This document shows positions 23,046-53,195 of a stretch of DNA of 64,000 bases, piece after piece. Origin of the DNA: Candidatus Adlerbacteria bacterium (GTDB lineage: Bacteria > Patescibacteriota > Minisyncoccia > Phycocordibacterales > SBAW01). The first letter of the stretch is position 1. Each line of letters starts with the position of its first letter. Where the stretch lies: the NCBI GenBank assembly GCA_026397405.1, contig JAPLUW010000001.1, forward strand, positions 339,977-403,976, written 5' to 3'. A program made the translations under genes and the position numbers. The notes under the pieces were generated by a model. It did no database searches, was not told the origin of the DNA, and was given only the letters and a program-made list of their open reading frames with translations.

Positions 23046-23425
23046 TTGTGGAGATGGGCGGAATTGAACCGCCGTGCAATGAAGTGCTACTGGAGCTTCT
23101 ACGGAGTCTAGTTCGCTTTTTGTTTCTTTAGCGTGTCATGGGCTAAGCGAACGAAATCATGACACCCTGCAGCTCCTTAGTTTCAGCTTCAGACCGAAGC
23201 GGTTTCTGAAGTAATACCTTTGCTATATAACATCCGGTCTCAACCCGCAAAGTGGGGAAGAGTGAATGCGACTAGGCCTTGGCGTAAGCGAAAGCGAAAT
23301 CGTTCGCCGAAAAATACGGCGAGGCAACTGTTTTTGCAGTTATGTTTTCCAGATTTTTAGAGAGGTCTGGGCTCTCACTACGCGCATCCGAATAGATGGC
23401 TTCATTGTCTAGGCCTGGCATCCCC
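23046..23425 (-). ncRNA. ssrA: tmRNA (SsrA)
   Basis: The minus strand shows the tRNA-like 3' end GGCGGTTCAATTCCGCCCATCTCCAC and a 5' GGGGATGCC that pair as an acceptor stem with G3:U70. Internal tag ORF GCG AAC GAT TTC GCT TTC GCT TAC GCC AAG GCC TAG at 23272-23307. Adjacent to smpB. Confidence 0.85.
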
Positions 23426-26437: not shown

Positions 26438-26450
26438 TTTCTGTCTTTTG

Positions 26451-26524
26451 TGTGCCTGCCTGGACTCGAACCAGGGACCGCCGAGGTATAAGCTCGGAGC
26501 TCTAACCAACTGAGCTACAGGCAC
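26451..26524 (-). tRNA. tRNA with anticodon UAU (tRNA-Ile, AUA decoder)
   Basis: Manual cloverleaf: acceptor GTGCCTG/CAGGCAC, D-arm GCTC...GAGC, anticodon stem CCGAG/CTCGG with loop CTTATAC (anticodon TAT), T-arm CCTGG-TTCGAGT-CCAGG. Confidence 0.7.
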
Positions 26525-36400: not shown

Positions 36401-36521
36401 CCCTACGTGGGGGCCGCTCGCATTTTCAGTTATGTTTGGACTTGGGTTTGCTATCTGCCTTACGCTCGTACTCGTTCCCGTATTATTTTTCCGCACACAA
36501 CAAAAGAAGGGACTAAAATAA
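33426..36521 (+). CDS. RND efflux transporter permease (AcrB/HAE1-like)
   Basis: 1031 aa with the 12-TM pseudo-repeat architecture. Conserved RND TM4/TM10 regions (GILVDSGIVVTEAI..., GVIINHAIILMD). Confidence 0.8.
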   Translation: MLWLWNFFLERKQFSYVLIGTLVIAGFYSLLQIPKENSPSIVIPDGIVSVALPGASAADMETLVTDKLENKISGLSNVHKVTSNSSDGVSVVTVEFDASADVTQSIQELRDVVAKAVPELPTDATTPQVSKVDISNQPVLVVSISGDLPLTEFSALGTTISDEIKSVTGVSDISIAGVPDRQVTVVVSKEQLQQYGLRLIDVIAAIRAANVAAPAGSISMDGVNYNVNFKGGITDPKEIQDIAVGSKNNIPIYVRDIAVVSDALAPATTYSRLSLGGKPSNQAMTLLISKQAGASVQGVADAVKAKVASMQQGTLKGLDVFISPSTDQGVQVRKQLGDLTKTGLETVGLVIIVLLLTIGWRESIVAALAIPLSFLIAFIGLYFTGNTLNFISLFALILAVGILVDSGIVVTEAIHARMKVHGNPMDAARAALHDYAWPLIAGTMATVAVFAPLFFISGIIGKFIAGIPYTLIFVLMASIFVALGIVPLIAVLFTKQSGQSRFEEWQEMYTDKATHWYKNNLHKILASARLQRRFLWTLGILFTLSLALPFTGLVQTTFFPQDDQDFVYINIQKPQGTTLSTTDLTVREIEELLYADPDISSLQTTVGQSSGVAGGGGSAGSNQANITVNLPLGHKKTSTEIANELGQRLAVVTDASVQVLQANNGPSAGAPIQIQFKGDNLNDLVKAAEAGKQLLATIPHVTNVTATTQNNGTEFDLTVNRGKATALGLSTQVVAQTLRAAIQGTKATSITQPSKDIDVVVKLNLNANYTDPSDTSRTTIDTIKNLTIQGAAGPVLLGTVLDDTLGPSNANIAHIEKTRVETISAYPDDKTTATAVVAEFQKRVTELRLPAGVAVAYGGETEDITRSFIEMFVALIAGLVLMFMILILCFNSIRYTFQLLLIVPLSLIGVLDGLALTGQPVSFTSLLGIIALGGVIINHAIILMDSMIHQLHAAPNMALIDSVVESSATRLRPIFLTTVTTIVGMIPLAESNPTWGPLAFSVMFGLGFAICLTLVLVPVLFFRTQQKKGLK

Positions 36522-36528
36522 CGTCCTG

Positions 36529-37149
36529 TTAGGAATACGCTAAGGCAACACACTCAACACGCGCAGCACCTGCCTTTTTTAATGCACGTGTGGCTTCGGC
36601 AAACGTAGCGCCCGTTGTTGAAACGTCGTCTACAACTACGCACACACGGCCCGCAATTTTTTTTGGGTCTTGTGCGTGCATCGAACCTTCTATGTTTGTA
36701 AGCCGTAGATGTTTGTGTAGGCCTTGTTGTGGAGGAGTGGCACGGGTTCGCGTAAGTGCGTACGGTACGTAGTCAAAAAAACTACTCGCATGTACGAGCG
36801 CGGCTCTGCACAACACCTCTGTTTGGTTGTGTCCGCGCTGGCGCCTTCTGGCTGCATGTATCGGTATGGGTACAAGTACAGGCTTTCCTAATTCTTCTGA
36901 GGCTATTCCAATGAGCACTTCAGAAAGTATTGCGCCGGCAAGTACTGCAGCACGGGGATGTGCATAATATTTTAGTTCCCACACAAGTGCCGTCACGCGT
37001 TTGTCATGATAGGGAAGGCTGCCTGCTCGGTCGCCGCGTAACACGAGTAGTTGCAACTGCTGCAAAGTTAATGCGCGGACAATGTTTTCTGTTCTGCGTG
37101 GAGGAGCTACAATGTCGATAAGTGTAGAGAAAAAAGAGTAGAGAGACAT
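36529..37149 (-). CDS. comFC: ComF family protein (ComFC, phosphoribosyltransferase domain)
   Basis: PRTase motif VCVVVDDVSTTGATFAE and an N-terminal zinc-finger-like region. It lies divergent from pilM. Confidence 0.7.
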   Translation of the reverse strand: MSLYSFFSTLIDIVAPPRRTENIVRALTLQQLQLLVLRGDRAGSLPYHDKRVTALVWELKYYAHPRAAVLAGAILSEVLIGIASEELGKPVLVPIPIHAARRRQRGHNQTEVLCRAALVHASSFFDYVPYALTRTRATPPQQGLHKHLRLTNIEGSMHAQDPKKIAGRVCVVVDDVSTTGATFAEATRALKKAGAARVECVALAYS

Positions 37150-37190
37150 ACTACTAATGATATACTAGCAAGTGTTCATCTCACCTCATT

Positions 37191-38288
37191 ATGGCATTTT
37201 CCTTTTCATCACTCTTCTCTAAGGAAGTAAAAAGTGTGCTTGGTGTTGACATCGGCACGTCGTCGATAAAAATAGTACAGCTGCGGCGCGAAAAGGGTCG
37301 TGTGGTACTTGAAACATATGGTGCTATTGCGCTCGGGCCGTATGCAGACATTGAAGTTGGTCGTGCGACGGCCTTGCCGGCCGAAAAAATCGCCGAAGCT
37401 CTTAAAGATGTGATACGAGAAGCAAATGTCACCACGGCCGACGCTGCAATTTCTATTCCGTACTCGTCGAGCCTGGTGTCGATCGTTACCCTACCTGCAT
37501 CGGTTGAAAAACAGCTCGCAACGGTCATGCCACTTGAGGCGCGTAAATATATCCCTGTCCCGATTAACGAAGTACTGCTCGACTGGTTTGTTATAAGTGG
37601 TGGCGAAGGCGAAAAAAACGCCAGCCCTACCGGCAAAATTGAAGTACTGCTGGTGGCTATACACAACGACACAATTACAAAGTTTCGCTCCATTGCGAGC
37701 ACTGCAAACTTGGAGTTAGGTTTTTTTGAGATAGAAGTCTTTAGTGCAGCACGCGCCGCGCTCGACCACGGCATTGCACCAGTTGCAGTGGTCGACATGG
37801 GTGCGGCAACAACTAAATTTTATGTTGTCGAGCGCGGCGTAATACACGAAAGCCATATTATCAGCCACGGCAGCCAAGACTTAACCTTGGCAGCGGGCAG
37901 AGCGCTTGGTATCACCGTAGCAGAAGCCGAACAGCGCAAGCGTAAGTTTGGTCTGACAGGAGATATAGCGACCGCAGGCATTGCAAACCTAAAACAATCG
38001 CTAGAACTTTCCCTAGGCATAGTGCTGTCCGAACTCTCGCGGACTATTGCAGCGTATGAGGCGGCTAAAAACCAGTCACTCGGCGCACTTGTGTTAACCG
38101 GCGGCGGCGCAACGTTGAAAGGCATGAAAGAATTTGCGCAAAAGTCGATACAGACAGAAATCCGTCTTGCCGACCCGTTTAGCAAAACGCAGGCCCCTGC
38201 CTTTTTGGAAGAAATTCTGCGAGAAGCCGGACCGGAGTTTTCGGTTGCGGTGGGGTTGGCGCTGCGGCGCTTGCAGGAAATTGGATAA
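37191..38288 (+). CDS. pilM: Type IV pilus assembly protein PilM
   Basis: Actin-like ATPase fold motifs (VLGVDIGTSSIKIVQL..., GGGATLKG). Confidence 0.8.
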   Translation: MAFSFSSLFSKEVKSVLGVDIGTSSIKIVQLRREKGRVVLETYGAIALGPYADIEVGRATALPAEKIAEALKDVIREANVTTADAAISIPYSSSLVSIVTLPASVEKQLATVMPLEARKYIPVPINEVLLDWFVISGGEGEKNASPTGKIEVLLVAIHNDTITKFRSIASTANLELGFFEIEVFSAARAALDHGIAPVAVVDMGAATTKFYVVERGVIHESHIISHGSQDLTLAAGRALGITVAEAEQRKRKFGLTGDIATAGIANLKQSLELSLGIVLSELSRTIAAYEAAKNQSLGALVLTGGGATLKGMKEFAQKSIQTEIRLADPFSKTQAPAFLEEILREAGPEFSVAVGLALRRLQEIG

Positions 38289-38363
38289 CACACCAACCGG
38301 TCGGCAGGCGCATGTGTTGATAGAGTTCTCCTTGTTTTTATTTGCACGGTATACTTACAAAGA

Positions 38364-39011
38364 ATGGATTCTCAAATTTCTGCATCGTTCATACCAAAAA
38401 AACCACTCGACAGTGGAAAGCCGTACCGCGAAGGTGGGGGGTTTGGCCTCTTCTTTTTTATTGCGCTGTTCATATTTATTGTTTCGTTGGTTGCTGCCGG
38501 AGGTGTGTTTGGCTACCAGACCTTGCTCGCGTCGTCACTGGCGTCAAAGTCCGACTCTCTCGCAAAGGCCGAAGGCGCGTTCGACATCTCGACCATACAA
38601 GACCTTGTGCGTATGGACTCTCGTATCAACAATGCACAATTACTTCTGCAAAACCACGTTGCTCCGTCTGCTATTTTTAATTTCCTCGGCAGCCAAACTC
38701 TCCAGGCAGTTCAATTTGTAAGCCTTACGTACAACTTACAGGGCGGCAATTCGGCAACGGTTGTGCTTGCAGGGCAGGCCGACTCGTTTGCAACCGTTGC
38801 GCTGCAAAGCGACCAATTTAGTGCAAGCAAGGTTCTTAAAAATGTTGTGTTTTCGGACATAAAGGTGGGACTTGTGGGCAAAGTGACGTTTAATGTTACT
38901 GCCACAGTCGACCCGTCGCTTATTAACTACACCAAAAATTTAGGTGTTGCACAGACTCTGCCGCAGCAGAGCGCCCCCGCATCAGGAACCACGCCAAATT
39001 TTGTACCCTAG
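38364..39011 (+). CDS. pilN: Type IV pilus assembly protein PilN-like
   Basis: Single N-terminal TM helix followed by a periplasmic domain. Position after pilM. Confidence 0.55.
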   Translation: MDSQISASFIPKKPLDSGKPYREGGGFGLFFFIALFIFIVSLVAAGGVFGYQTLLASSLASKSDSLAKAEGAFDISTIQDLVRMDSRINNAQLLLQNHVAPSAIFNFLGSQTLQAVQFVSLTYNLQGGNSATVVLAGQADSFATVALQSDQFSASKVLKNVVFSDIKVGLVGKVTFNVTATVDPSLINYTKNLGVAQTLPQQSAPASGTTPNFVP

Positions 39012-39014
39012 TAT

Positions 39015-39566
39015 ATGAAACGAATTATCCTTCCAGTATTTTTGTTTGCGGCGGCACTTGGGTTGTTTGTGCTGTATACCAACCCTGCGTATCAAACGAT
39101 AAAAAATCTTTCAGTTCAAAATGCATCGTATGACGACGCTCTCACTAAGTCGGCAGAACTACACAGTTTGCGTGACAGACTACTTGCAACCCGCGCATCA
39201 TTTTCGAACGACAATGTGATAAAGCTAAGTCATGTGCTCCCCGACAACGTCGACAACATCCGCTTAATAATAGATATCAACAATATTGCTGCCAGACATG
39301 GGTTAGCACTTTCAACCGTAGAGCTTGGCAGTGTCTCCGACAGCGACCAAAAAAGGAGCGCCTTGGCAGTAGGCTCCTCGGGAGCGGCGGTGGGTTCGGT
39401 ACAGGTTGGGTTTTCGGTTGCGGCAAAATACGACGACTTCCTAGTATTTTTGCAAGACCTCGAACACAGTTTGCGCATTGTAGATATAGACAAGATATCG
39501 TTTAACACCGGGCCCGGTGACCTTAATGTGTACTCTGTCGACATACGGACGTACTGGCTTCATTAA
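39015..39566 (+). CDS. pilO: Type IV pilus assembly protein PilO-like
   Basis: N-terminal TM and a coiled-coil region. Position in the pilMNO order. Confidence 0.5.
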   Translation: MKRIILPVFLFAAALGLFVLYTNPAYQTIKNLSVQNASYDDALTKSAELHSLRDRLLATRASFSNDNVIKLSHVLPDNVDNIRLIIDINNIAARHGLALSTVELGSVSDSDQKRSALAVGSSGAAVGSVQVGFSVAAKYDDFLVFLQDLEHSLRIVDIDKISFNTGPGDLNVYSVDIRTYWLH

Positions 39567-39574
39567 TATCTTCT

Positions 39575-39961
39575 ATGGATTTTCTTAAAAAAAATAAAAT
39601 GGTAACCGGGGGAGTTATACTCGCTGTTGTTTTGTTACTCGGGGTGTTGTTTTTTTCGGGTAACACGAACACACCGACATTGTCGTCGTCAGCTGACCCG
39701 AGTGAGCCGTCAGTTTCGAGAGACTTACTTGTAACACTTTCAAATTTGCATACGCTTCGCCTCGACGGCAGCATCTTTTCAAATCCTGCATTTATTTCGT
39801 TGACCGACTACGGCGTCATTATCCCGCCTCAGCCTGTCGGGCGCCGTAACCCATTTTTGTCGCTCACTGCTCCAACCCCAGTACCTCCGGCGCCCGCAGC
39901 TTCAACCCCTGCAAGTACGAAAACAAAAACCCCAACAAAAACTCCTACTACGACGCACTAG
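39575..39961 (+). CDS. Small membrane protein of the pilus assembly locus (PilP-like, Pro/Thr-rich C-terminus)
   Basis: TM helix plus a low-complexity tail. Assigned by context only. Confidence 0.35.
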   Translation: MDFLKKNKMVTGGVILAVVLLLGVLFFSGNTNTPTLSSSADPSEPSVSRDLLVTLSNLHTLRLDGSIFSNPAFISLTDYGVIIPPQPVGRRNPFLSLTAPTPVPPAPAASTPASTKTKTPTKTPTTTH

Positions 39962-39977
39962 TGCGCTGTCATTTGCT

Positions 39978-41822
39978 ATGGACCTACTCACGCTTCTTTT
40001 ACAAACTGGAGCTATAGACGCTACGCTCGTGCCTGCTCTCCGGCTAGAGCTCGGCAAACCTGGCGCAAACGCAGAGGAGGTGTTTCTTGCTGCAGGTGTT
40101 CCGGCCGAAGAAATTCTTAAAGCTAAGGGTGCGTATTACGGCACCCCTGTGCGCGAGCTTGGGTCCGAACCTGTGCCGTTTAGCACACTTAGCTATATTC
40201 CCGAAGAATCTGCGAGGCACTACCACTTTGTCCCGCTTGGGGTAGAAGACGGCGCGCTGCTTGTTGGTGTAACCGACCCCGACAATCTTGAGGCACGCGA
40301 TGCACTGACGTTTATTTCGGCAAAAGTGGGGATGCCGTACAAAGTATTTCTTATAAGTGAGGCTGACTTTGCAAAACTCCTTCTCGAATATAAAGGACTC
40401 TCCGGTGAAGTGGGAAAAGCGTTGAATGACCTCGAAACTGAAAGTACTACAGACATTCACGCCGAAGAAACAAAGCGCAATATTTCTATCGAAGACGAAG
40501 AGGTGACAGACACAGCAGAGGCGGTGAGCGAAGGTGCGCCTGTGACAAAAATTGTTGCGACGGTGCTGCAGCATGCCTCCGAGCAGCGCGCGTCTGACAT
40601 CCATATCGAACCTATGGCCGAACAAACTCGTGTGCGGTTTCGTATCGATGGTGTGCTTATCACCAACTTAACACTACCTTCCAAAGTACACACGTCGGTT
40701 GTGGCGCGTATCAAAGTGCTGTCTAACATGCGTCTGGACGAAAAGCGCAAACCTCAAGACGGCCGTTTTTCTGCACGGGTTGGTACTGACAAAATAGACT
40801 TTCGTGTTTCGACATTTCCAACCTACTATGGCGAAAAGGTAGTGATGCGTATTTTGGGCTCTGCTGCGCAAGACTTACGGCTGGAAAGTTTGGGCATGTC
40901 CGAGCGCGACATTGCACTTATCCGTACCGCGATAAAAAAACCCTACGGTCTGGTGTTGGTGTCGGGCCCAACAGGTTCGGGTAAGTCGACCACCTTGTAT
41001 GCGCTGTTAAATGAAATTGATCGCGAAGGACAGAATGTACTTTCGCTCGAGGACCCGGTTGAATATACGATCCCTGGTGTATCGCAAAGCCAAATTCGCC
41101 CTGAAATCGGATACACGTTTGCAACAGGCTTGCGCACCACACTGCGCCAGGACCCAAATATTATTATGGTCGGCGAAATCCGCGACGCAGAAACTGCAAA
41201 CTTGGCCGTGCAAGCAGCACTTACGGGCCACTTGGTGCTTTCAACCATACACACCAACAACTCTATTGGTATTATCCCGCGCCTCCTCGATATGGGTGTC
41301 GAGCCCTACCTTATACCACCAGTGCTTATTTTAGGTATGGCACAACGCCTTGTTCGTACGTTATGCAAAAACGGCGGCAAAGTAGTTACTGCAGAACAAA
41401 GTATGCAGGAAATGTTTACAAAAGAGTTTGAAGACTTACCTGAAGAATATAGAAAAAAATTACCCCCGCTCAACACCGTGCACCGGCTGCAAGTCACGCC
41501 CGAATGTCCGTCGGGTACACAGGGACGTATTGCAGTAGTTGAAGTGTTCGATATGAATCCAGAACTTGAAAAAGCGATACTCGAACACAAACCCGAAGAA
41601 GAAATGTTTGCAACGGTGCGTAGACACGGCATGTTGACCATGAAAGAAGATGCTATTATTAAATCTGTAAAAGGTATTATTCCGTTCGAAGAAGTAAACA
41701 CACTCGGAGGTCAGTATGAACTGGAAGACGATGTAGAAGCAGCCCCCATGCCGCCTCCAGCTCCCGAAGCGCTTGCTGCAGATGGAGATAACGATGCACC
41801 AGGAAAAGAAGTACAAATTTAA
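39978..41822 (+). CDS. pilB: Type IV pilus assembly ATPase PilB (GspE family)
   Basis: N-terminal GSPII-like domain, Walker A GPTGSGKSTT, Asp box, Walker B, His box, and a C-terminal Cys cluster. Confidence 0.85.
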   Translation: MDLLTLLLQTGAIDATLVPALRLELGKPGANAEEVFLAAGVPAEEILKAKGAYYGTPVRELGSEPVPFSTLSYIPEESARHYHFVPLGVEDGALLVGVTDPDNLEARDALTFISAKVGMPYKVFLISEADFAKLLLEYKGLSGEVGKALNDLETESTTDIHAEETKRNISIEDEEVTDTAEAVSEGAPVTKIVATVLQHASEQRASDIHIEPMAEQTRVRFRIDGVLITNLTLPSKVHTSVVARIKVLSNMRLDEKRKPQDGRFSARVGTDKIDFRVSTFPTYYGEKVVMRILGSAAQDLRLESLGMSERDIALIRTAIKKPYGLVLVSGPTGSGKSTTLYALLNEIDREGQNVLSLEDPVEYTIPGVSQSQIRPEIGYTFATGLRTTLRQDPNIIMVGEIRDAETANLAVQAALTGHLVLSTIHTNNSIGIIPRLLDMGVEPYLIPPVLILGMAQRLVRTLCKNGGKVVTAEQSMQEMFTKEFEDLPEEYRKKLPPLNTVHRLQVTPECPSGTQGRIAVVEVFDMNPELEKAILEHKPEEEMFATVRRHGMLTMKEDAIIKSVKGIIPFEEVNTLGGQYELEDDVEAAPMPPPAPEALAADGDNDAPGKEVQI

Positions 41823-41831
41823 GAACATTCC

Positions 41832-42893
41832 ATGGACTACAAAAAGAAACTAGCTGAACTTATCGCACTCCTTATTGCGCAAGGCGCCTCGGACTTGCAC
41901 TTGGGTGCAGGTATCCAGCCGGTTATCCGTGTATCGCACACACTCACGCCGCTTTTGTCTGAGCCGGTACTTTCAAACGACGACGTCATGGGCCTCCTTG
42001 CAGAAATGTTGAGCCCCGAACATAAAAAACGCTTTTTAGAAACACAAGAAGTAGACTTTTCGTATGCCTACGAAGACAAGGCGCGGTTCCGCGGGAACGG
42101 CTACTTCGAACGTGGACATGTGGGTGTGGCACTCCGCTTAATTCCTAAAGTTATCAAGACACTCGCCGAGTTGAACTTGCCGCCGTCTATAGAAACGTTC
42201 GCTGCGCGCCAGCAAGGGTTCTTTTTGGTGGTGGGTCCGGTAGGGCAGGGAAAGACAACCACGCTTGCGGCACTCATAGACAAAATAAATTCTGAGCGCA
42301 CCGAACACATTGTCACGATTGAAGACCCGATAGAATATTTGTTCGAAAATAAAAAATCGCTCATTGACCAGCGCGAAGTCCATATAGACACGGCGGACTT
42401 CGAGTCGGGTCTGCGTTCGGTATTTCGCCAAGATGCAAACGTGCTTATGATAGGCGAAATGCGCACGCCAGAAACTATGGCCGCAGCGGTAACAGCTGCC
42501 GAGACTGGACACTTGGTGTTTTCGACATTGCACACCAACAACGCAGCGCAAACAATAGACCGCATCATCGACTCGTTTCCCGGGGGCCAGCAAGACCAAA
42601 TCCGCACGCAGCTTGCGGCCTCTCTTGCAGGTATTTTCTCTCAGCGGCTTATCCCGCGCGTTTCAGGTGGCCTTGTCCCTGCATGCGAGCTACTTATAAA
42701 TACTGGTGCTGTCGCAAACTTAATACGCGAAAAACGCACACACGAAATACAGACCGTCATAGAAACTGGTTCCGACGAAGGCATGATAGACATGAACCGT
42801 TCGTTAGCCGAAATGGTCCGCATGGGGGAGATAACAATAGAAAGTGCCTATGCCCGTTCGTGGAGCCCAAAAACCCTGGAGCGTTTGTTGTAA
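41832..42893 (+). CDS. pilT: Twitching motility ATPase PilT
   Basis: Walker A GPVGQGKTTT, AIRNLIRE-like motif (AVANLIREKRTHEI). About 350 aa. Confidence 0.85.
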   Translation: MDYKKKLAELIALLIAQGASDLHLGAGIQPVIRVSHTLTPLLSEPVLSNDDVMGLLAEMLSPEHKKRFLETQEVDFSYAYEDKARFRGNGYFERGHVGVALRLIPKVIKTLAELNLPPSIETFAARQQGFFLVVGPVGQGKTTTLAALIDKINSERTEHIVTIEDPIEYLFENKKSLIDQREVHIDTADFESGLRSVFRQDANVLMIGEMRTPETMAAAVTAAETGHLVFSTLHTNNAAQTIDRIIDSFPGGQQDQIRTQLAASLAGIFSQRLIPRVSGGLVPACELLINTGAVANLIREKRTHEIQTVIETGSDEGMIDMNRSLAEMVRMGEITIESAYARSWSPKTLERLL

Positions 42894-42899
42894 TATTGT

Positions 42900-44120
42900 A
42901 TGTCAGAATTTAAGTACGAAGGACTCGACCAAACAGGTAAGCCGCAGAGCGGCACAGCCAATGCGCCTACCCAGGACGCTGCGGTGGAAGCTCTGCAGCG
43001 CCGCGGGCTCACGCTTACCTCCATTTCTCCTATAAACCAAGACAACAACGTACGCGCGCTTTTAAACAACACATCTTTTTTTGGAGGAGTATCTAACCGC
43101 GATGTGGTGCTGTTGTCGCGCCAACTTGCAACGCTGTTTGAAGCGCAAGTATCAGCCCTGCGCGTATTTCGCTTGCTTGCAGAGCAGGCCGAAAAACCAT
43201 TTTTGCGCAAAGCACTTACCGACGTAGGGGACGACCTCCAGAGCGGTGACTCAATTTCCAAAGCACTCGCAAAACATCCAAAAGTCTTTTCGGACTTTTA
43301 CGTCAACATGGTTCGTGCGGGCGAAGAGTCGGGCAAGCTCGACCAAACCTTTTTGTTTTTGGCAGACTATATAGACCGCTCGTACGAATTAACCGGCAAG
43401 GCACGCAACGCGCTTATATACCCGGCGTTTATTATGGTCACCTTTGTTGCGGTGATGACGCTCATGCTTACCGTTGTTATCCCAAAAATTGGCTCGATTT
43501 TGGAAGGGGACGGCCAGCAGTTGCCACTCTTTACACAAATAATACTTAGCTTCAGCGCGTTCTTAACCGACTACGGTATTTTTATACTTATTGCACTTAT
43601 TGTTGGTGGGTACTTTCTCTACCGATATGCACAAACGCCCACAGGTAAACTTGCCATGAGCCGTTTCAAACTTTCTATTCCCTACGTTGGCGAGTTGTAC
43701 CGCAAGCTCTACTTGTCGCGGTTTGCAGACAACATGCACGTGATGCTTACGTCGGGCATTAGCGCCGTCCGTTCGCTTGAAGTAACGTCGAGCGTTATCG
43801 AAAACCAAATATACGAAGGGATAATCCTCGAAGCTCTCGAAGGCGTAAAAGCCGGCCGTTCGATTTCAGAAACATTTAGCCATTACCCGCAGGAAATCCC
43901 GTCTATTATGGTGCAAATGCTCAAAATAGGTGAAGAAACGGGGGAACTCGGGAATATTTTGCAGCGCATGGCCAAGTTTTATAACCGCGAAGTAAACGCC
44001 GCGGTCGACACCCTCGTGTCGCTCATAGAGCCGGCCCTTATTGTTGCACTGGCGCTCGGTGTCGGCTTCCTTCTTGCTGCGGTATTGCTCCCAATTTACA
44101 ACAGCACGGCAAATATTTAG
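42900..44120 (+). CDS. pilC: Type IV pilus inner-membrane platform protein PilC (GspF family)
   Basis: 406 aa with duplicated T2SSF domains and three TM segments. Confidence 0.8.
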
Positions 44121-44182
44121 GCCTATATAGGCTTATCCCCACCGCATACAGGCATAGAAGCTCTGTGCGCTATACTGTACCT

Positions 44183-44710
44183 ATGCACACATTTTTCAAA
44201 AAAACGTCCACCCGAGGTTTTACCCTTATCGAACTCCTCGTTGTTATCGCTATCATCGGCATTCTGGCCGCAATTGTGCTCGTGTCTTTGACGGGTGCTC
44301 GTACGAAGGCGCGCGATGCAGCACGCGTAGCATCACTTCAAGAAATGGGTAAGGCAATTGCAGTTGCTGACACCGACCCTGCACTACCTCTGACTGGGTG
44401 CACCGGTGGCGGCAGTTCTGCAACACCAAATTCAACTACCAACAAGGCAAGTGCCTGCACAGGGCCTGCTCCTATAAGCTTTGCAAGTTACATTGACCCT
44501 GCAGTTACATCGTCAGGTGCTCCATGCACCAGTAGCCCAACCGCAGCTTGTAACTACCTCATTGCTAAACAAGACGGCTCTTCCGGAAACCCGACAACTC
44601 AAAATTACGAAATCTGTTCATATTTGGAAGTTGGGTCGGGCGCAATACCTGCTGGAAAAGTAATGATAAACAGCAACAGTGGTGGTACCGTAACGACCGG
44701 TTGTAACTAA
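44183..44710 (+). CDS. Type IV pilin (major pilin candidate 1)
   Basis: Class III signal peptide: [21 protein letters not shown], with the G/F cleavage site and Glu5. Confidence 0.8.
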
Positions 44711-45273
44711 TGAAAAAAAGAGGTCTCACCCATAGGGCTATAACCGAGGGTTTTACTCTCATAGAGCTCCTTGTTGTCATAGCCATCATTGGTATTTTGG
44801 CATCTATTGTCATGGTTAACTTGGCGAGCGCAAGGAAAAAGACCCGCGACGCAAAACGCATATCCGATATTAAAAACCTCCAACTTTCGCTCGAGGAATA
44901 TTACAACGACAATTTAAAATATCCGACCGTACTGGGTTCCCTTATACCAAATTATTTACCGAACATTCCCTATGACCCAAACGGTACTGTTGTCTGCAAC
45001 ATAGGTTCGGAAGCGAGCTGTTATGCATATGCGGCACTCAATGTTACGGGCGGCACTGCCGACTGCTACGCGGTCCCTGCAAGCAAGTACCACCTTGGCG
45101 CTGCGCTTGAAGCAAACAACGCCATAACGCAAGATGCAGACCTGGCCGCGGCGCCGGCGGGGTTTCAAAAATGTGCAACGAGCAACGCCAACTTTAACGG
45201 TGTAGCAACAGACTGTGTGGGTGCTACGGCAGGTTTTGGTGGTGCCGACAACTGTTACGACGTCACTAACTAA
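44710..45273 (+). CDS. Type IV pilin (candidate 2)
   Basis: [21 protein letters not shown] prepilin motif. Confidence 0.8.
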   Translation: MKKRGLTHRAITEGFTLIELLVVIAIIGILASIVMVNLASARKKTRDAKRISDIKNLQLSLEEYYNDNLKYPTVLGSLIPNYLPNIPYDPNGTVVCNIGSEASCYAYAALNVTGGTADCYAVPASKYHLGAALEANNAITQDADLAAAPAGFQKCATSNANFNGVATDCVGATAGFGGADNCYDVTN

Positions 45274-46029
45274 TGTACGAACTTTCTGCTCTTGGGCTTT
45301 GGAGTATAGGTCTTGGGCTCATCGCCGGTAGTTTTTTAAATGCACTTTCGTTCCGGCCGTTCTATGTGTATGCGGTGTGGGCATACGCTCCGCGCGCTTG
45401 ACCTTATTCCACTTTTTTCATACGTGTTTCTTTTGGGTACATGTCGCTATTGTGGCACACGTATTTCAATGCAATATCCGCTGGTTGAACTTGCCGCTGC
45501 CATGCTTTCGTTTGGAGTCTTCACTGCAGTGCAGACACCACTCATGTATGCATTTTGGTTTTTTGTGTGGATGGTTATTTTGTTTATCGTTATATACGAC
45601 ATACGCCACACTGTTATTCCGTGGAGTTGTTCGCTGTTGCTTATAGGGTTGTCCCTCGTGTCTCTTTTTTTGTCAGGTATGCCATCTTTTGCCGCGCTTC
45701 TTTCGGGGCCACTTTTGGCGCTGCCACTTTTAGCATTGTCATTTTTTTCTCGTGGTCGGTGGATGGGGTGGGGCGACGGGGTCTTCCAACTTTCACTCGG
45801 GTGGTTCCTCGGGCTCGTGCCAGCTCTGAGTGCACTCGCACTTTCGGTTTGGACAGGCGCCTTCGTTGGCGTCGGGCTTGTTCTGGTCTCACAACTTCCA
45901 TGGAAATACCGCTCGCGTGGGTTTACAATACAAAGTGAGCTTCCCTTTGCGCCGTTCTTAGCGCTTGGGGCCCTGCTCGTGTACTTCTTTCATGTCGATC
46001 TTTTTTCAACATATTTTCTCCTCTGGTAA
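45273..46029 (+). pseudogene. pilD: Prepilin peptidase PilD (A24 family) split by a +1 frameshift
   Basis: Frame 0 (45273-45401) encodes the canonical N-terminus MYELSALGLWSIGLGLIAGSFLNALSFR..., then reaches a stop. Frame +1 (45340-46029) encodes the rest, including CMRCGH...CRYCG and WMGWGDG. The shift must fall between about 45340 and 45366. Confidence 0.6.
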
Positions 46030-46651
46030 GAGCAAGTTCGCGCTGGGTAGGAGCCGCGGTTTTACACTTATCGAATTGCTCGTAGTATCGGCAATTATTG
46101 TCATCATTACGATGGTGCTGTTGTTGCGGCAGTCGCGGTTCGACAGCTCAACTATTTTGCGTAGCCTCGCGTACAGCGTGGCACTCTCGGTGCGGCAAAC
46201 CCAGGTGTACGGTACCAGCGTGCTCGGCAGTAATAATTCGGGTGCCGTGAGTTATGCATCTGCATACGGACTTTATTTTTCTGCTACAACACCTTCTTCC
46301 TATGTCTTGTTTGCCGACTTTAATAACAACGGTGTGTACGACTCCGCAGAGGAAACAGTTAAAATATTTTCATTAAACACCGGCTACGTCATAAGCGAAG
46401 TCTGTACAAAACTCTCGGGCGGCTCGAACCGCTGCACCGGTGCAGACGACTCTTCGGGCATGCGCACCATTACGTCGCTCAACATTTTGTTTAAACGTCC
46501 AAACCCCGATGCGGTTTTTACAACCGACATTAACGGCGAGTCCTATATCAGTGGGTATATTCAAGTGCGCTCGGGTGACGGCACTACGCGTAGCGTTGTG
46601 ATAACATCCCCCGGGCAAATAAGCGTCCAAGCGCCAGGAACACTGCCATGA
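45992..46651 (+). CDS. Minor pilin / pseudopilin
   Basis: [18 protein letters not shown] prepilin motif. Start uncertain (long leader). Confidence 0.65.
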   Translation: MSIFFQHIFSSGKSKFALGRSRGFTLIELLVVSAIIVIITMVLLLRQSRFDSSTILRSLAYSVALSVRQTQVYGTSVLGSNNSGAVSYASAYGLYFSATTPSSYVLFADFNNNGVYDSAEETVKIFSLNTGYVISEVCTKLSGGSNRCTGADDSSGMRTITSLNILFKRPNPDAVFTTDINGESYISGYIQVRSGDGTTRSVVITSPGQISVQAPGTLP

Positions 46652-47229
46652 ACAACCGAGTCTCACCCATAGGACTACGACCGAGGGGTTTTACACTTAT
46701 AGAAATGCTCGTGTCGGTTGCTATATTTAGCACGGTGATGGTTGTTGCACTTGGTGCGCTCCTTTCGCTTTCGGAAGCGAACCGCAGAGCAGAATTGTTG
46801 TCATCGGCAACTAACAACTTTGACTCGGCAATAGACAGCATGTCGCGCGCTATTCGCACCGGCATAAATTACCATTGCGGCGCAGGGACACTTACGGCAA
46901 CGCTCGACTGCACCAGCGCTGGTGCCACACAGTTTGCGTTTTTGGCAGCAACTGGCAACGAAACAGTCTACCAGTTTGGCACTATTGGCTGCCCAAACAA
47001 TGTCGGGTGTATTTTGCGCTCAACGGACGGAGGAGCATCGTATGCAAGCATTACCTCGCCGGAGATTTTTGTCACATCCCTTAAATTTTTTGGCCTCGGT
47101 GCATTTAACACAGACAACATACAGCCCCGCGTTGTCATGCTTATTTCTGGCTATGTCGTGGTTAAGGGTGCGCAAAAATCAGTATTTAACTTTCAAACGT
47201 CCGTAACACAACGCTTTTATGACAGGTAA
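46648..47229 (+). CDS. Minor pilin / pseudopilin
   Basis: PRGFTLIEMLVSVAIFSTV motif. Confidence 0.7.
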   Translation: MNNRVSPIGLRPRGFTLIEMLVSVAIFSTVMVVALGALLSLSEANRRAELLSSATNNFDSAIDSMSRAIRTGINYHCGAGTLTATLDCTSAGATQFAFLAATGNETVYQFGTIGCPNNVGCILRSTDGGASYASITSPEIFVTSLKFFGLGAFNTDNIQPRVVMLISGYVVVKGAQKSVFNFQTSVTQRFYDR

Positions 47230-47833
47230 AAAACCACATATGCGTGCACGAGGGTCTGTTCGCCGGCAGGCAGGGTTTACACTTGTTGAAACTCTGCTCG
47301 CTATCCTTATTTTGACAACTGCAATTGCGGGGCCACTTACTATCGCTGCAAAAGGTTTAAGTTTGGCGCTCATCGCAAAAGACCAAGTGGCCGCAACATT
47401 TTTAGCGCAAGACGCTGTAGAGTATGTCCGGTTTATCCGCGACACAAACAGGCTTTCAAACAACAGCGACTGGCTGGCAGGGCTCGACGGTGGTAACAAC
47501 GGCCACACGACAAGCAACAGCGGCGCGCAGCCAAATTGTACAAATGGTAATGCGTGTGTGGTCGACTCGTTACAAGACCTCGTTTCAAACTGTGGCTTGG
47601 TTACTACTGGGTGTGCGTCTACGCCACTCTACTTTGACCCTACAAACCAATACTACACATATGTCACGGCTGGAAATACGCAAACTATTTTTTCGCGGAC
47701 GATAAGTATAGAAACACCTTCACAGGGCGGCAACACCAGCGAAGCAGAACTGACCGTCCTCGTGCAGTGGAAGGACGTTGGCGGAGTTGTGCGTTCTGTT
47801 GTACTGCGCGAAAACTTGCTTAACTGGCAGTAA
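47219..47833 (+). CDS. Minor pilin / pseudopilin (PilV-like)
   Basis: QAGFTLVETLLAILIL motif. Confidence 0.65.
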   Translation: MTGKKPHMRARGSVRRQAGFTLVETLLAILILTTAIAGPLTIAAKGLSLALIAKDQVAATFLAQDAVEYVRFIRDTNRLSNNSDWLAGLDGGNNGHTTSNSGAQPNCTNGNACVVDSLQDLVSNCGLVTTGCASTPLYFDPTNQYYTYVTAGNTQTIFSRTISIETPSQGGNTSEAELTVLVQWKDVGGVVRSVVLRENLLNWQ

Positions 47834-47839
47834 CTATAT

Positions 47840-48376
47840 ATGAAAAAAAATTCCAAAGGCTTTACTATATTTTTTGCAACATTGGTTGCGTCTTTGGCGC
47901 TGGCCATTGGTCTTGCTATCTACGACATAACCGTGCGCCAGCTTGACCTTGCAACCACGGTGATACAGTCGCAGTACGCAATTTACGCTGCCGACAGCGG
48001 TGCCGAATGCGCACTCTACTGGGACTCAAAATTTATTGGGGCAGGAAGTGCGTTTGCTACCTCGAGCGCTTCGACGTACCCAACATCAGGTGTTGTGTGT
48101 GGTGCATACGACATTGCCGCAAAAGGGACTCCGCCGACCCCGTTTGGTCCAGAACCTGGCGGGTGGGGTACATGGAATGTTGGATCTACCGACACTGCCG
48201 CGACTACTACATTTACATTAACCTTCCCGTCGTACTCGTACTGTGCACGCGTAGAGGTGGGGAAGGCGGTCAACAATTTGGGTATCGTGTCGACCACGAT
48301 ACGTTCGCACGGGTACAACACCTGTGCCAAAAACGCGCAAAATCAGCTGGAACGCGAGTTGAAAGTGAGCTATTAA
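47840..48376 (+). CDS. Pilin-like protein with a degenerate prepilin motif (KGFTIFF, no Glu5)
   Basis: N-terminal hydrophobic pilin-like helix. Position in the pilin array. Confidence 0.5.
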   Translation: MKKNSKGFTIFFATLVASLALAIGLAIYDITVRQLDLATTVIQSQYAIYAADSGAECALYWDSKFIGAGSAFATSSASTYPTSGVVCGAYDIAAKGTPPTPFGPEPGGWGTWNVGSTDTAATTTFTLTFPSYSYCARVEVGKAVNNLGIVSTTIRSHGYNTCAKNAQNQLERELKVSY

Positions 48377-48390
48377 AGGAAACCGTGTAG

Positions 48391-50418
<2,028 letters not shown>

Positions 50419-50433
50419 TGTACTATTGTTTTT

Positions 50434-50736
50434 ATGATTTCTAAGGAAGAAATAGAAAAGCTCGCGGAGCTCTCACGCTTAAAGCTGGGGGAGGAGGAGA
50501 TTGCCGCCCTGCAAAAGGATATTTCCAGTATTCTCGACTATGTGGGGCAGATTAGTGCTTTAGAGGGTGGAGAGATAAAAAAGGAAGTTGGCCTCAACCA
50601 CAACGTCATGCGGGAGGATATTCCCTATGTAAAAGAAAACCCGCTGCTTGAGTCGCGCGACGCGGTGCTCGAAGCATTGCCTAAGCGCGAAGGCGACTAC
50701 GCTGTCGTGCGAAAAATCTTACATAAAAATGACTAA
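50434..50736 (+). CDS. gatC: Asp-tRNA(Asn)/Glu-tRNA(Gln) amidotransferase subunit C
   Basis: 100 aa. GatC-like sequence (EEIEKLAELSRLKL...), located upstream of gatA. Confidence 0.75.
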   Translation: MISKEEIEKLAELSRLKLGEEEIAALQKDISSILDYVGQISALEGGEIKKEVGLNHNVMREDIPYVKENPLLESRDAVLEALPKREGDYAVVRKILHKND

Positions 50737-52165
50737 ATTAAACGAACTTTCAATAATAGAAGCATCTGCGAAGTTGCAAGCAGGAGAAATCACTGCGGTC
50801 GACTTGGCTCGTGCGTGCCTAGCAGAAATTGAGCGGGACAGGCCTGAAGGAACAGTAGACCGTCTCAATGCATACTTGGAAGTGTTTACTGACGTGGAAG
50901 AGCAGGCGAAGCAAGCAGACGAGCGCCGCAAAGCAGGAGAGTCGCATCCACTGCTCGGTATCCCGCTTGCTATCAAAGACAATATTTTAATTAAAGGTAA
51001 AAAAGTTTCTGCAGCAAGTAAGATGCTCGAGCACTACAGCGCAACCTATGACGCAACAGTCATTCAAAAATTAAAAGACGCGGGGACTGTCTTTCTTGGT
51101 CGTACCAACATGGACGAGTTTGCGCTCGGTGGCTCGACGGAAAATTCGGCATTCGGGCCAACTAAAAACCCGCATGATCCTACACGTGTTGCCGGTGGTA
51201 CATCAGGGGGCTCAGCCGCAGCAGTGGCGGCGCATATGTGCCTCGGAGCTTTGGGCACTGACACGGGCGGCTCGGTACGTAACCCAGCAAGTTTTTGCGG
51301 CGTGGTTGGTTTAAAACCAACGTACGGCACGGTGTCGCGCTCGGGGTTAATTGCTGCGGTGTCGTCGTTTGACCAAGCAGGGCCTATAACTAAAACAGTT
51401 GAAGATGCGAAATTAATTTTTGACACTATCCGCGGCAAAGATATTCTTGACGCAACTTCTATCGATGAAGATCTATACCCGAAACACACACAGAAAAAAA
51501 TTATAGGGGTCATCAAATTAAACGTTGAGACAGCAAAAGAAAATATGGATGCTGTTAACTCTACGGTTCAGGTATTCTCTGCGGCTATCAAAAAACTCGA
51601 AAATGAAGGATTTAAGATTGTAGAAATTAACTTGCCTTCAATGCAGCCCGCACTTGCGGCGTACTACATCACCAACTTTGCTGAAGTGTCGTCCAACCTG
51701 TCGCGCTTTGACGGTGTGCGCTACGGACTTTCACTTTCGGGCGAGTCACTTTTTGATGACTATGCAAAAAGTAGAGGGGAGGGGTTTGGTGCAGAAACCA
51801 GGCGACGTATTATTTTAGGCACCTACGTGCTTTCTGCTGGGTACTACGACGCATATTACGGAAAGGCTGTGGCTGCACGCGAGCAACTACGTAAAGAATT
51901 TGAACAGACGTTTAAAGATGTTGATGTTATTGCGACGCCAACAATGCCGACACCCGCGTGGAAGATTGGGGAAAAATCTGACCCACTTTCTGCCTACTTG
52001 GCTGACATTTTTACTGTGACCGCAAACCTAACGGGCAACCCGGCAATTTCTGTGCCCATGGGCACAGTCGACGGCCTTCCCGTTGGCATACAGTTTACTG
52101 CGGCGCATGGAGACGAAGAAACTTTGTTTCGGGTGGGGAAGAATGTAGCAGGCGAAGAAAAATAG
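50729..52165 (+). CDS. gatA: Glu-tRNA(Gln) amidotransferase subunit A (amidase signature family)
   Basis: Amidase signature GGSSGGSAAAVAA with the Ser-cisSer-Lys triad. Start at ATG 50729, overlapping the gatC end. Confidence 0.85.
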   Translation: MTKLNELSIIEASAKLQAGEITAVDLARACLAEIERDRPEGTVDRLNAYLEVFTDVEEQAKQADERRKAGESHPLLGIPLAIKDNILIKGKKVSAASKMLEHYSATYDATVIQKLKDAGTVFLGRTNMDEFALGGSTENSAFGPTKNPHDPTRVAGGTSGGSAAAVAAHMCLGALGTDTGGSVRNPASFCGVVGLKPTYGTVSRSGLIAAVSSFDQAGPITKTVEDAKLIFDTIRGKDILDATSIDEDLYPKHTQKKIIGVIKLNVETAKENMDAVNSTVQVFSAAIKKLENEGFKIVEINLPSMQPALAAYYITNFAEVSSNLSRFDGVRYGLSLSGESLFDDYAKSRGEGFGAETRRRIILGTYVLSAGYYDAYYGKAVAAREQLRKEFEQTFKDVDVIATPTMPTPAWKIGEKSDPLSAYLADIFTVTANLTGNPAISVPMGTVDGLPVGIQFTAAHGDEETLFRVGKNVAGEEK

Positions 52166-52188
52166 GGCGTACAATAGGAAGGTAATCT

Positions 52189-52764
52189 ATGTTCACTATC
52201 GACTTTGCAGCTATATTTACGCGCATCTACGAACTCGTGCATGGCACGCATGTCGACGTACACAGCCTCCAAAGCCAACTGATAAGCACGGCTAGTATTA
52301 TTGCGGTCGTAGGTTTAAGTCTGGCGCTTGTGATGCTTGTGACCTTAGTGTTTGTAAATATTCGTTTGCATGAGTTGGAGCATCATGGATTCCATGCGAT
52401 GGAAGTACACGACCATGCAGAGCACGAGCATGAAGTGGTGCACGAAGCAAAAAACCCACGCTGGGAAGCCGTGTCGATGCTTGCAAGTTCTGGAAACGAA
52501 AGCGACTGGCGCCGTGCAATTATGGAAGCCGACATTATGCTGTCGGTGTTGCTTAACGAAAAAGGCTACAGCGGTGCGACCCTGGGCGACCAATTAAAAA
52601 TGGCAAATCCGCTGCAATTTACCACCGTGGACATTGCATGGGAGGCGCACCGTATGCGCAATGCCCTGGCGCACTTGGGTGAAGCGTTTCCGTTGAGTGA
52701 GCGTGACGCACGCGCAACCATAGACCAATATCGCCGTGTATTTGAAGAGTTCGACTATATTTGA
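52189..52764 (+). CDS. Membrane-anchored protein with a His-rich linker and a C-terminal DUF4145/HEPN-like domain
   Basis: TM helix (IIAVVGLSLALVMLVTLVFV), followed by HELEHHGFHAMEVHDHAEHEHEVVHE. The C-terminus AWEAHRMRNALAHLG fits the R-x(4-6)-H / N..AH motif of DUF4145-type HEPN domains. Family assignment is tentative. Confidence 0.45.
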   Translation: MFTIDFAAIFTRIYELVHGTHVDVHSLQSQLISTASIIAVVGLSLALVMLVTLVFVNIRLHELEHHGFHAMEVHDHAEHEHEVVHEAKNPRWEAVSMLASSGNESDWRRAIMEADIMLSVLLNEKGYSGATLGDQLKMANPLQFTTVDIAWEAHRMRNALAHLGEAFPLSERDARATIDQYRRVFEEFDYI

Positions 52765-52808
52765 TAGACTCCTTTTATACGGGCGCGTGGCTCTGTAGCA
52801 GTGCAAAA

Positions 52809-52879
52809 TACTACATATAGCGGGGTGGAGGAGTAGTACCTCACAAGGCTCATAACCTTGGGACCCGGGTGCAAATCCC
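52809..52879 (+). tRNA. tRNA-Met (anticodon CAU), initiator-like
   Basis: Anticodon loop CTCATAA, unpaired 1:72 (A:A), A11:U24 in the D-stem, and a TGCAAAT T-loop. All of these are initiator hallmarks. Confidence 0.75.
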
Positions 52880-52884
52880 GGCCC

Positions 52885-52920
52885 CGCAACAAGATACAAA
52901 ACAGCCCCGCTCCTGCGGGA
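52885..52920 (+). terminator. Hairpin CAGCCCCGC-TCCT-GCGGGACTG followed by TTTTGT
   Basis: Near-perfect inverted repeat after the initiator tRNA. Confidence 0.45.
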
Positions 52921-52964
52921 CTGTTTTGTATTAACGGTTGAAGCAAAGGAGATAAAATGCTAGC

Positions 52965-53038
52965 GTGTCTGTACGTCGGTGTAGCTCAGGTAGTTAGAGC
53001 ATGGCACTCATAAAGCCAAGGTCGAAGGTGCAAGTCCT
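52965..53038 (+). tRNA. tRNA with CAU anticodon (elongator Met or Ile2/LAU)
   Basis: Acceptor GTCGGTG/CATCGAC, D-arm GCTC-AGGTAGTTAG-AGC, anticodon loop CTCATAA, T-arm GAAGG-TGCAAGT-CCTTC. Confidence 0.75.
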
Positions 53039-53120
53039 TCCATCGACACAAGTGAAAAGGTGATTGGAAAAAGGCGCATTCTGCGCTAGAATCGCTTTGT
53101 TCGCTTAAGGTTCCTCATTT

Positions 53121-53195
53121 GCGGCCATAGCTCAATTTGGTTAGAGCGCTTCCCTGTCACGGAAGAGGTTGCCGGTTCGAGTCCGGTTGGCCGCG
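53121..53195 (+). tRNA. tRNA-Asp (GUC)
   Basis: Acceptor GCGGCCA/TGGCCGC, anticodon loop CTGTCAC, T-arm GCCGG-TTCGAGT-CCGGT. Confidence 0.85.

Follow-up and report, generated by a model that had tools for sequence, protein, structure and literature searches.

A probable recent 29-bp deletion splits the prepilin peptidase gene of a type IV pilus cluster in Candidatus Adlerbacteria

How does a bacterium with an otherwise intact type IV pilus cluster come to carry its prepilin peptidase gene, pilD, in two different reading frames? We addressed this question in a stretch of 64,000 nucleotides of a Candidatus Adlerbacteria bacterium (hereafter the window, to which all positions refer). The initial annotation of this DNA had described pilD as interrupted by a +1 frameshift, and had named a genuine pseudogene, an assembly error, and programmed recoding as possible explanations. 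Around the gene, Pfam matches and gene calls on matching contigs delimit a complete plus-strand cluster for type IV pili (37191-48376). The same pilus gene calls were obtained in L001, a 20.7-kb Logan contig of SRR20698643. The genes around pilD are as follows:

37191-38288, plus strand: pilM (Pfam PilM_2)
38364-39011, plus strand: pilN (Pfam PilN)
39015-39566, plus strand: pilO (Pfam PilO)
39575-39961, plus strand: small ORF (gene call)
39978-41822, plus strand: pilB (Pfam T2SSE+MshEN)
41832-42893, plus strand: pilT (Pfam T2SSE)
42900-44120, plus strand: pilC (Pfam T2SSF)
44165/44183-44710, plus strand: pilin gene, N_methyl motif, class III signal peptide G/FTLIELL
44710-45273, plus strand: pilin gene, N_methyl motif, class III signal peptide; its stop overlaps the pilD ATG
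45992-46651, plus strand: pilin-like gene, N_methyl; overlaps the 3′ end of pilD by 38 nt
46648-47229, plus strand: pilin-like gene (gene call)
47219-47833, plus strand: pilin-like gene (gene call)
47840-48376, plus strand: pilin-like gene (gene call)

Thus, pilus machinery and substrates with class III signal peptides flank pilD on both sides. The two pilins encoded upstream are PilD substrates, three of the four downstream pilin-like genes have N_methyl matches (L001/L003), and the pilins of the cluster carry G/FTLIE-type leaders that need PilD. Elsewhere in the window we observed a tmRNA gene on the minus strand (23046-23425, tag peptide AKTVASPYFSANDFAFAYAKA), two adjacent tRNA genes with anticodon CAT (52819-52890 and 52975-53049), and a minus-strand tRNA-Ile with anticodon TAT (26450-26524), which is an uncommon bacterial way to read AUA.

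The reading frames of the window leave pilD in two pieces. The start codon ATG 45273, which shares bases with the TAA of the upstream pilin gene (TAATG), opens a 42-aa ORF (MYELSALGLWSIGLGLIAGSFLNALSFRPFYVYAVWAYAPRA) that consists of MYELSALGLWSIGLGLIAGSFLNALSFR followed by 14 unrelated residues and ends at TGA 45399-45401. Meanwhile, the +1 frame contains a TAA at 45337-45339, directly followed by ATG 45340, from which a 229-aa ORF runs to TAA 46027-46029. The motifs CMRC...CRYC, YDIRH, and WMGWGDG are all found in this second ORF. The overlap between these frames spans 60 nt (45340-45399), and the window offers no single uninterrupted ORF from the first transmembrane helix (TM1) to the C-terminus. 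Pfam searches gave a consistent picture. The 229-aa ORF alone matched positions 25-82 of the A24_N_bact profile (PF06750, cut-off 23 bits) with 72 bits, while a conceptual fusion of both ORFs matched positions 2-82 with 79 bits. A single A24_N_bact domain is thus divided between the two pilD frames.

The point of division was located with an intact homologue of 261 aa, P0001, which is encoded by L001. When P0001 was compared with the window by tblastn, two matches of 100% identity were obtained: residues 1-28 fell on 45273-45356, and residues 38-261 on 45355-46026 in the other frame. The two halves meet at 45353-45356 and the frame therefore switches there, within the bracket of 45340-45366 proposed at the outset. 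The placement of the PilD N-terminus in frame 0 from ATG 45273 up to the TGA at 45399 was likewise borne out by reading the sequence, and that of the remainder of the enzyme in the +1 frame from 45340 by ORF reading, Pfam, and tblastn. The resulting parts are:

45273-45401, plus strand: 5′ remnant of pilD in frame 0, with codons 1-28 authentic (TM1, GSFLNALSFR), then 14 out-of-frame codons and TGA
45355-46029, plus strand: 3′ remainder of pilD, read in frame +1 and encoding residues 38-261 of the intact protein and the stop; it covers the zinc ribbon (CxxC...CxxC), the two motifs with the catalytic Asp residues (YDIRH, GWGDG), and every TM helix after TM1

Candidate internal starts for the 3′ part are ATG 45340 (229 aa), ATG 45364 (221 aa, the GenBank call), and ATG 45370.

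Alignment of the window with L001 revealed the nature of the lesion. Over 17.9 kb (window 35273-53166), the two sequences were 100% identical apart from a block of 29 nt, which is the only difference between them. The blastn segments pair L001 1-10083 with window 35273-45355, and L001 10111-17923 with window 45354-53166. The extra bases of L001 read CGTTTTAATACGGGACGTAGCATAGCGCA; they sit between window bases 45353 and 45356 and are flanked in L001 by ...CTTTCGTTC and CGGCCGTTCTATG... of the window (alignment A1). The feature that defines the deleted allele is:

45353-45356, plus strand: deletion junction at which the 29 nt CGTTTTAATACGGGACGTAGCATAGCGCA are absent; the breakpoint is ambiguous within CG 45354-45355

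The junction reads TTTCGTTCCGGCCGTTCTATG in the window and joins TTTCGTTCC to GGCCGTTCTATG. Once the 29 nt are restored, pilD is the single 261-aa ORF of P0001, which is identical to the two pieces of the window except for the stretch ...ALSFR-FNTGRSIAH-GRSMCMRCGH.... What has been lost are codons 29-37 and two bases of codon 38, i.e., residues F29-H37 (FNTGRSIAH). As the removal of 29 nt is equivalent to +1 modulo 3, the gene appears to carry a +1 frameshift. The initial description was therefore right about the frame and wrong about the lesion, which is a 29-nt deletion and not a change of a single base. A difference that restores one continuous frame does exist, in contigs of other samples; it comprises 29 bases rather than the single base that had been envisaged. 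The T6 run at 45332-45337 is not the switch site, and a homopolymer slip is as unlikely as had been argued.

The two blastn segments overlap by CG (45354-45355), and the edges of the deletion therefore share a microhomology of 2 nt. A replication or repair error across this CG would be the most likely origin of the 29-bp loss. The search for relevant direct, inverted, or tandem repeats at the site found none, any repeat at the edges being 2 nt at most, and no copy of the 29-mer was found elsewhere. We also considered a deletion mediated by a hairpin or by repeats; this was rejected, as the predicted DNA fold of the intact region was no stabler than that of shuffled sequences (z = -0.79) and repeats were absent. 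On either side of the gap the window matches the intact allele at 100% identity, and the deletion must therefore be very young. We postulate that its origin is probably very recent and lies in one lineage within a lake population of Candidatus Adlerbacteria, and that the metagenome-assembled genome (MAG) behind the window captured the deleted allele. With the frame lost past the junction, translation from the native ATG 45273 would end after 42 residues. Based on these findings, we consider an ordinary, recent 29-bp deletion the probable cause of the split pilD.

Which protein does the intact allele encode? Its domains, cysteines, catalytic aspartates, and genomic context fit a PilD/PulO-type prepilin peptidase of family A24A, as far as these features can tell. 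The reference for this group is PilD/XcpA (MEROPS A24A; Pfam A24_N_bact + Peptidase_A24; e.g., PilD of Pseudomonas aeruginosa), a bifunctional type IV prepilin peptidase and N-methyltransferase. In both, a TM helix at the N-terminus leads into a cytoplasmic domain with four cysteines (CxxC...CxxC), the aspartyl peptidase domain is polytopic and carries a D...GxGD pair, and the gene belongs to a pilMNO-pilB-pilT-pilC-pilin cluster whose pilins have G/FTLIE leaders. In contrast to PilD/XcpA, the window copy is interrupted by the 29-bp deletion, the protein is short even when intact (261 aa), and its Peptidase_A24 domain (PF01478) scores 23.7 bits, below the curated gathering cut-off of 26.5, although the profile is aligned end to end (positions 2-104 of 104). 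Many of the close homologues carry a precomputed PF01478 match. Searches of the intact PilD against the PDB returned no significant match with Foldseek and none by sequence.

A protein search returned more than 1,200 relatives, with P0001 as the top match. Among the best 120 of these, most are about 247-280 aa long, and none of the homologues examined from this set is interrupted at the deletion site. When 61 homologues were aligned (A2), every one of them proved to conserve TM1 and the linker. The deleted stretch includes the invariant T31 and G32 and is flanked by the invariant R28, G38, R39, S40, C42, and C45. All four cysteines (C42, C45, C67, C70) are invariant, and so are the catalytic D119 (YDIRH) and D178 (GWGDG), both retained in the +1 ORF. 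An AF2 model of the intact protein has a mean pLDDT of 89 and places TM1 in a helix at residues 2-28. Judging from this model, the deleted residues are predicted to be the conserved linker from TM1 to the first zinc knuckle (CxxC).

Recurrent disruption of pilD in other lineages was considered and rejected: both short homologues that were checked, P0029 and P0042, owe their length to miscalled start codons, and their DNA has a continuous frame in which TM1 is still encoded. The pilD genes of two relatives, L095 (positions 520-650, SRR22387939) and L016 (JAIEMM010000008.1), are annotated as only 227 and 239 aa, and their frames continue through TM1; in both, the start codon was miscalled and the gene is not truncated. 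Direct reading of L095 found no ATG at TM1, where a GTG is probably the start, and the continuity of L016 is given solely by a tblastn match from query residue 11.

Independent assemblies of the locus were gathered through a look-up of the neighboring pilin genes. The strain of the window, at 100% identity, was recovered from the following samples:

SRR20698643: 29 nt present
SRR25046532: 29 nt present
SRR25046533: 29 nt present
SRR20698644: contigs break at the site
SRR25046534: contig stops short of the site

A sister strain with 96-97% DNA identity was also found. All seven of its contigs are continuous through the site and carry their own version of the 29 nt; among them are GCA_037135035.1 (Candidatus Adlerbacteria bacterium isolate ELA416, the GTDB species representative), JGI 3300020167, SRR7053306, and three ENA assemblies. 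Through this representative, the window is assigned to Candidatus Adlerbacteria (Patescibacteria). The comparison with orthologous pilD genes that the initial annotation had suggested thus returned one continuous ORF in the identical strain, the sister strain, and the homologues examined.

The two strains diverge unevenly along the gene. The 5′ part of pilD (window about 45310-45480; L002 3601-3800 vs L003) is a divergence hotspot relative to ELA416, with 38 mismatches in 200 nt compared to about 3% elsewhere in the cluster. Across pilD, most changes between the window strain and ELA416 are synonymous (35 synonymous and 10 non-synonymous codons). From its divergence pattern, the hotspot over the deletion site looks like an imported recombination tract.

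The deleted allele is public in GenBank through the source MAG of the window. The entry MCX6820050.1 (221 aa, Candidatus Adlerbacteria bacterium, encoded on a contig of 495,613 nt) corresponds exactly to window 45364-46029, is a member of the P0001 cluster, and is annotated as "MAG: prepilin peptidase", an ordinary gene with no pseudogene flag. In other collections the deleted form did not surface. An exact look-up of its possible products (229, 221, 219, and 42 aa) in a gene-position index found none on record. A junction pattern that accommodates either allele (N{0,29}), which does match the window itself, had no match in GTDB representative genomes or JGI metagenome contigs. A literature search on the run and assembly accessions gave no papers.

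Is the deletion then present in cells, or was it made during assembly? The most informative sample is SRR20698644, in which the locus is broken into two contigs that are both 100% identical to the window. The left contig (7,478 nt) ends at window 45354 (...CTTTCGTTCC) and the right contig (7,657 nt) starts at the same position (CGGCCGTTC...). In a de Bruijn graph, this start is the exact point at which an intact (…GCA/CGG…) and a deleted (…TTC/CGG…) allele would merge. The left contig, with its terminal ...TTCC, falls 1 nt short of TTCCG, where an intact and a 29-nt-deleted allele are predicted to branch. Such a pair of contigs ending at the indel is the pattern that would be expected of an unresolved two-allele bubble, which suggests that both alleles occur in SRR20698644 and that the deletion is probably found in real cells and not merely in an assembly. 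A variant with a 28-nt deletion would fit both contig ends exactly.

Contigs of several independent assemblies (L004, L005, L006, L008, L010, L011, L014, L015) also end inside pilD. These ends, at 45457-45494 and 45703-45869, fall in runs that are identical between both strains. Their position supports the interpretation of contig ends as graph branch points, and implies that co-occurring strains fragment the locus in most samples.

The strongest rival explanation is that the intact 261-aa pilD is the sole version in the organism and that the gap was introduced into the MAG during assembly, scaffolding, or polishing. Every independent assembly that spans the site contains the 29 nt, the deleted allele is absent from the gene-position index, the GTDB representatives, and the JGI contigs, and a null allele is suspicious a priori in a gene that is expected to be essential in an episymbiont (PMC11623550). 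That the deleted form is known solely from the window, and that the left contig of SRR20698644 lies 1 nt off the predicted branch point, also speak against a real allele. However, assemblers seldom invent a 29-nt deletion where the sole repeat is of 2 nt, and the absence of any further difference from an independent assembly over the 17.9 kb argues that the window is not an error-prone assembly. In addition, both flanking contigs of SRR20698644 stop at the boundaries of the deletion, implying allele heterogeneity in the reads. We therefore regard an artefact as unlikely; in all likelihood the deleted form is a real allele, carried by a minority or by one strain. The pseudogene option of the initial annotation accordingly emerges as the best-supported one, in the form of a genuine and very recent disruption: the 29-nt gap as sole difference and the contig ends of SRR20698644 speak for it, while its presence in cells is deduced from those contig ends.

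What would a real deletion do to the enzyme? The native start ATG 45273 yields a peptide of 42 residues at most, and we infer that the allele is null or severely crippled. Cells with the deleted allele would fail to mature their pilins, barring compensation by an N-terminally truncated PilD that starts at an internal ATG or by another peptidase encoded elsewhere in the genome; a tblastn search for a second A24 peptidase found none within the 64-kb window. The closest experimental reference is the type IV pilus locus 1 of Nanosynbacter lyticus TM7x (Saccharibacteria), a member of the same phylum-level group, the Patescibacteria (PMC11623550). This locus likewise comprises a platform protein, two ATPases, PilMNO, PilD, and about five pilins, and is essential in cultured TM7x, in which the targeted pilin genes could not be deleted (PMC11623550). 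The TM7x locus is intact (PMC11623550), whereas here one population allele has a broken pilD. Adlerbacteria are uncultured, and essentiality in them is extrapolated from TM7x. By this extrapolation, a null pilD should be costly and strongly selected against, and a null allele at high frequency would be surprising.

A second rival explanation accepts the deletion as real and holds that the allele is not null: a PilD devoid of TM1, translated from ATG 45340 (229 aa) or ATG 45364 (221 aa), would still cleave prepilins. In the +1 ORF the CxxC...CxxC domain is complete, and neither of the catalytic Asp motifs nor any of the later helices is lost. Initiation at an internal ATG is also conceivable. 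The genes of the window show no Shine-Dalgarno enrichment and their start contexts are rich in A/T; TTTTTTAA precedes ATG 45340, a context no worse than that of real starts. Throughout the window, a Shine-Dalgarno-like 4-mer was found upstream of 7 of 51 long ORFs, compared to a background of 12%, and the upstream regions were rich in A/T; 28 of the 51 have a T at position -1. Start selection in the window thus appears to be independent of Shine-Dalgarno motifs, as far as these start contexts indicate.

A24 peptidases of the TadV/CpaA/FppA type function without any N-terminal domain, and the remainder of the protein may keep its topology after removal of a TM1 whose N-terminus is outside. In these peptidases the A24 core can act without TM1 and the methyltransferase domain, a precedent that is the sole reason why the truncated ORF might keep activity. 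Yet they are evolved, conserved short forms that lack the zinc-ribbon domain, whereas the ORF of the window is an accidental truncation in which the zinc ribbon is kept and TM1 is lost. Against a functional truncated form also stand the conservation of TM1 and linker in 61 of 61 aligned homologues and the fact that both short homologues followed up were start miscalls that still encode TM1. Moreover, ribosomes that translate the upstream 42-aa ORF would interfere with initiation at ATG 45340, which this ORF contains. On balance, we find an active PilD without TM1 quite improbable.

The deletion as a genuine, probably disruptive allele raises the question of how it could persist. A pilD-disrupted lineage might occur at appreciable frequency in a natural population of these ultrasmall, presumably episymbiotic Adlerbacteria, a scenario to which we give a low probability. 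Two routes of persistence can be envisaged. Pilins could still be processed by a PilD of 221-229 aa that starts at an internal ATG and lacks TM1, or pilus-less cells could be temporarily favored, for example through escape from pilus-dependent phages.

The weakest alternative is programmed +1 ribosomal frameshifting that would fuse both frames into a functional PilD. Geometry alone speaks for it: the downstream frame is +1 and the 60-nt overlap (45340-45399) ends at an in-frame TGA, an arrangement that resembles the +1 frameshift of prfB, where an in-frame UGA ends the upstream frame. Unlike in prfB, there is no conservation, no CUU UGA C site, and no Shine-Dalgarno stimulator, and the pilD stop lies beyond the point at which a productive shift must occur. 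The gene is continuous in the DNA of the identical strain, in the sister strain, and in the examined homologues from the best 120, and flanks 100% identical to the intact allele leave no time for a signal to evolve. A useful shift would be confined to 45354-45366, where UUC CGG CCG UUC UAU contains no known +1 slippery site; the stretch from 45340 to the codon of the first Cys (45367) contained neither a known +1 slippery motif nor a CUU UGA C-type site. A Shine-Dalgarno stimulator is likewise not visible, in a window with no enrichment of such motifs, and no Rfam element was found in or near pilD. If the ribosome shifted at GCU UGA C (45396-45402), it would miss the first CxxC, and even a perfectly shifted product would lack the invariant T31 and G32. 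Programmed frameshifting, which the initial annotation had kept as an option, is thus effectively excluded. An alternative genetic code in which TGA is a sense codon was rejected as well, for the body of the enzyme sits in another frame whatever TGA encodes.

These findings are mainly a correction: the split pilD is a deletion allele of a well-known enzyme, neither recoding nor a one-base sequencing slip, and represents no new mechanism. The correction has a practical side, since MCX6820050.1 is listed as a normal peptidase and an inventory of the metabolic and pilus functions of this MAG would overstate its competence. If both alleles coexist, the locus would be a small, concrete case of loss-of-function microdiversity affecting the pilus system within an uncultured population of Patescibacteria, a system that has been essential in the cultured relatives tested so far. 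Were a disrupted lineage to prove true, it would constitute a natural experiment on the dispensability of PilD TM1 or of type IV pili in Patescibacteria.
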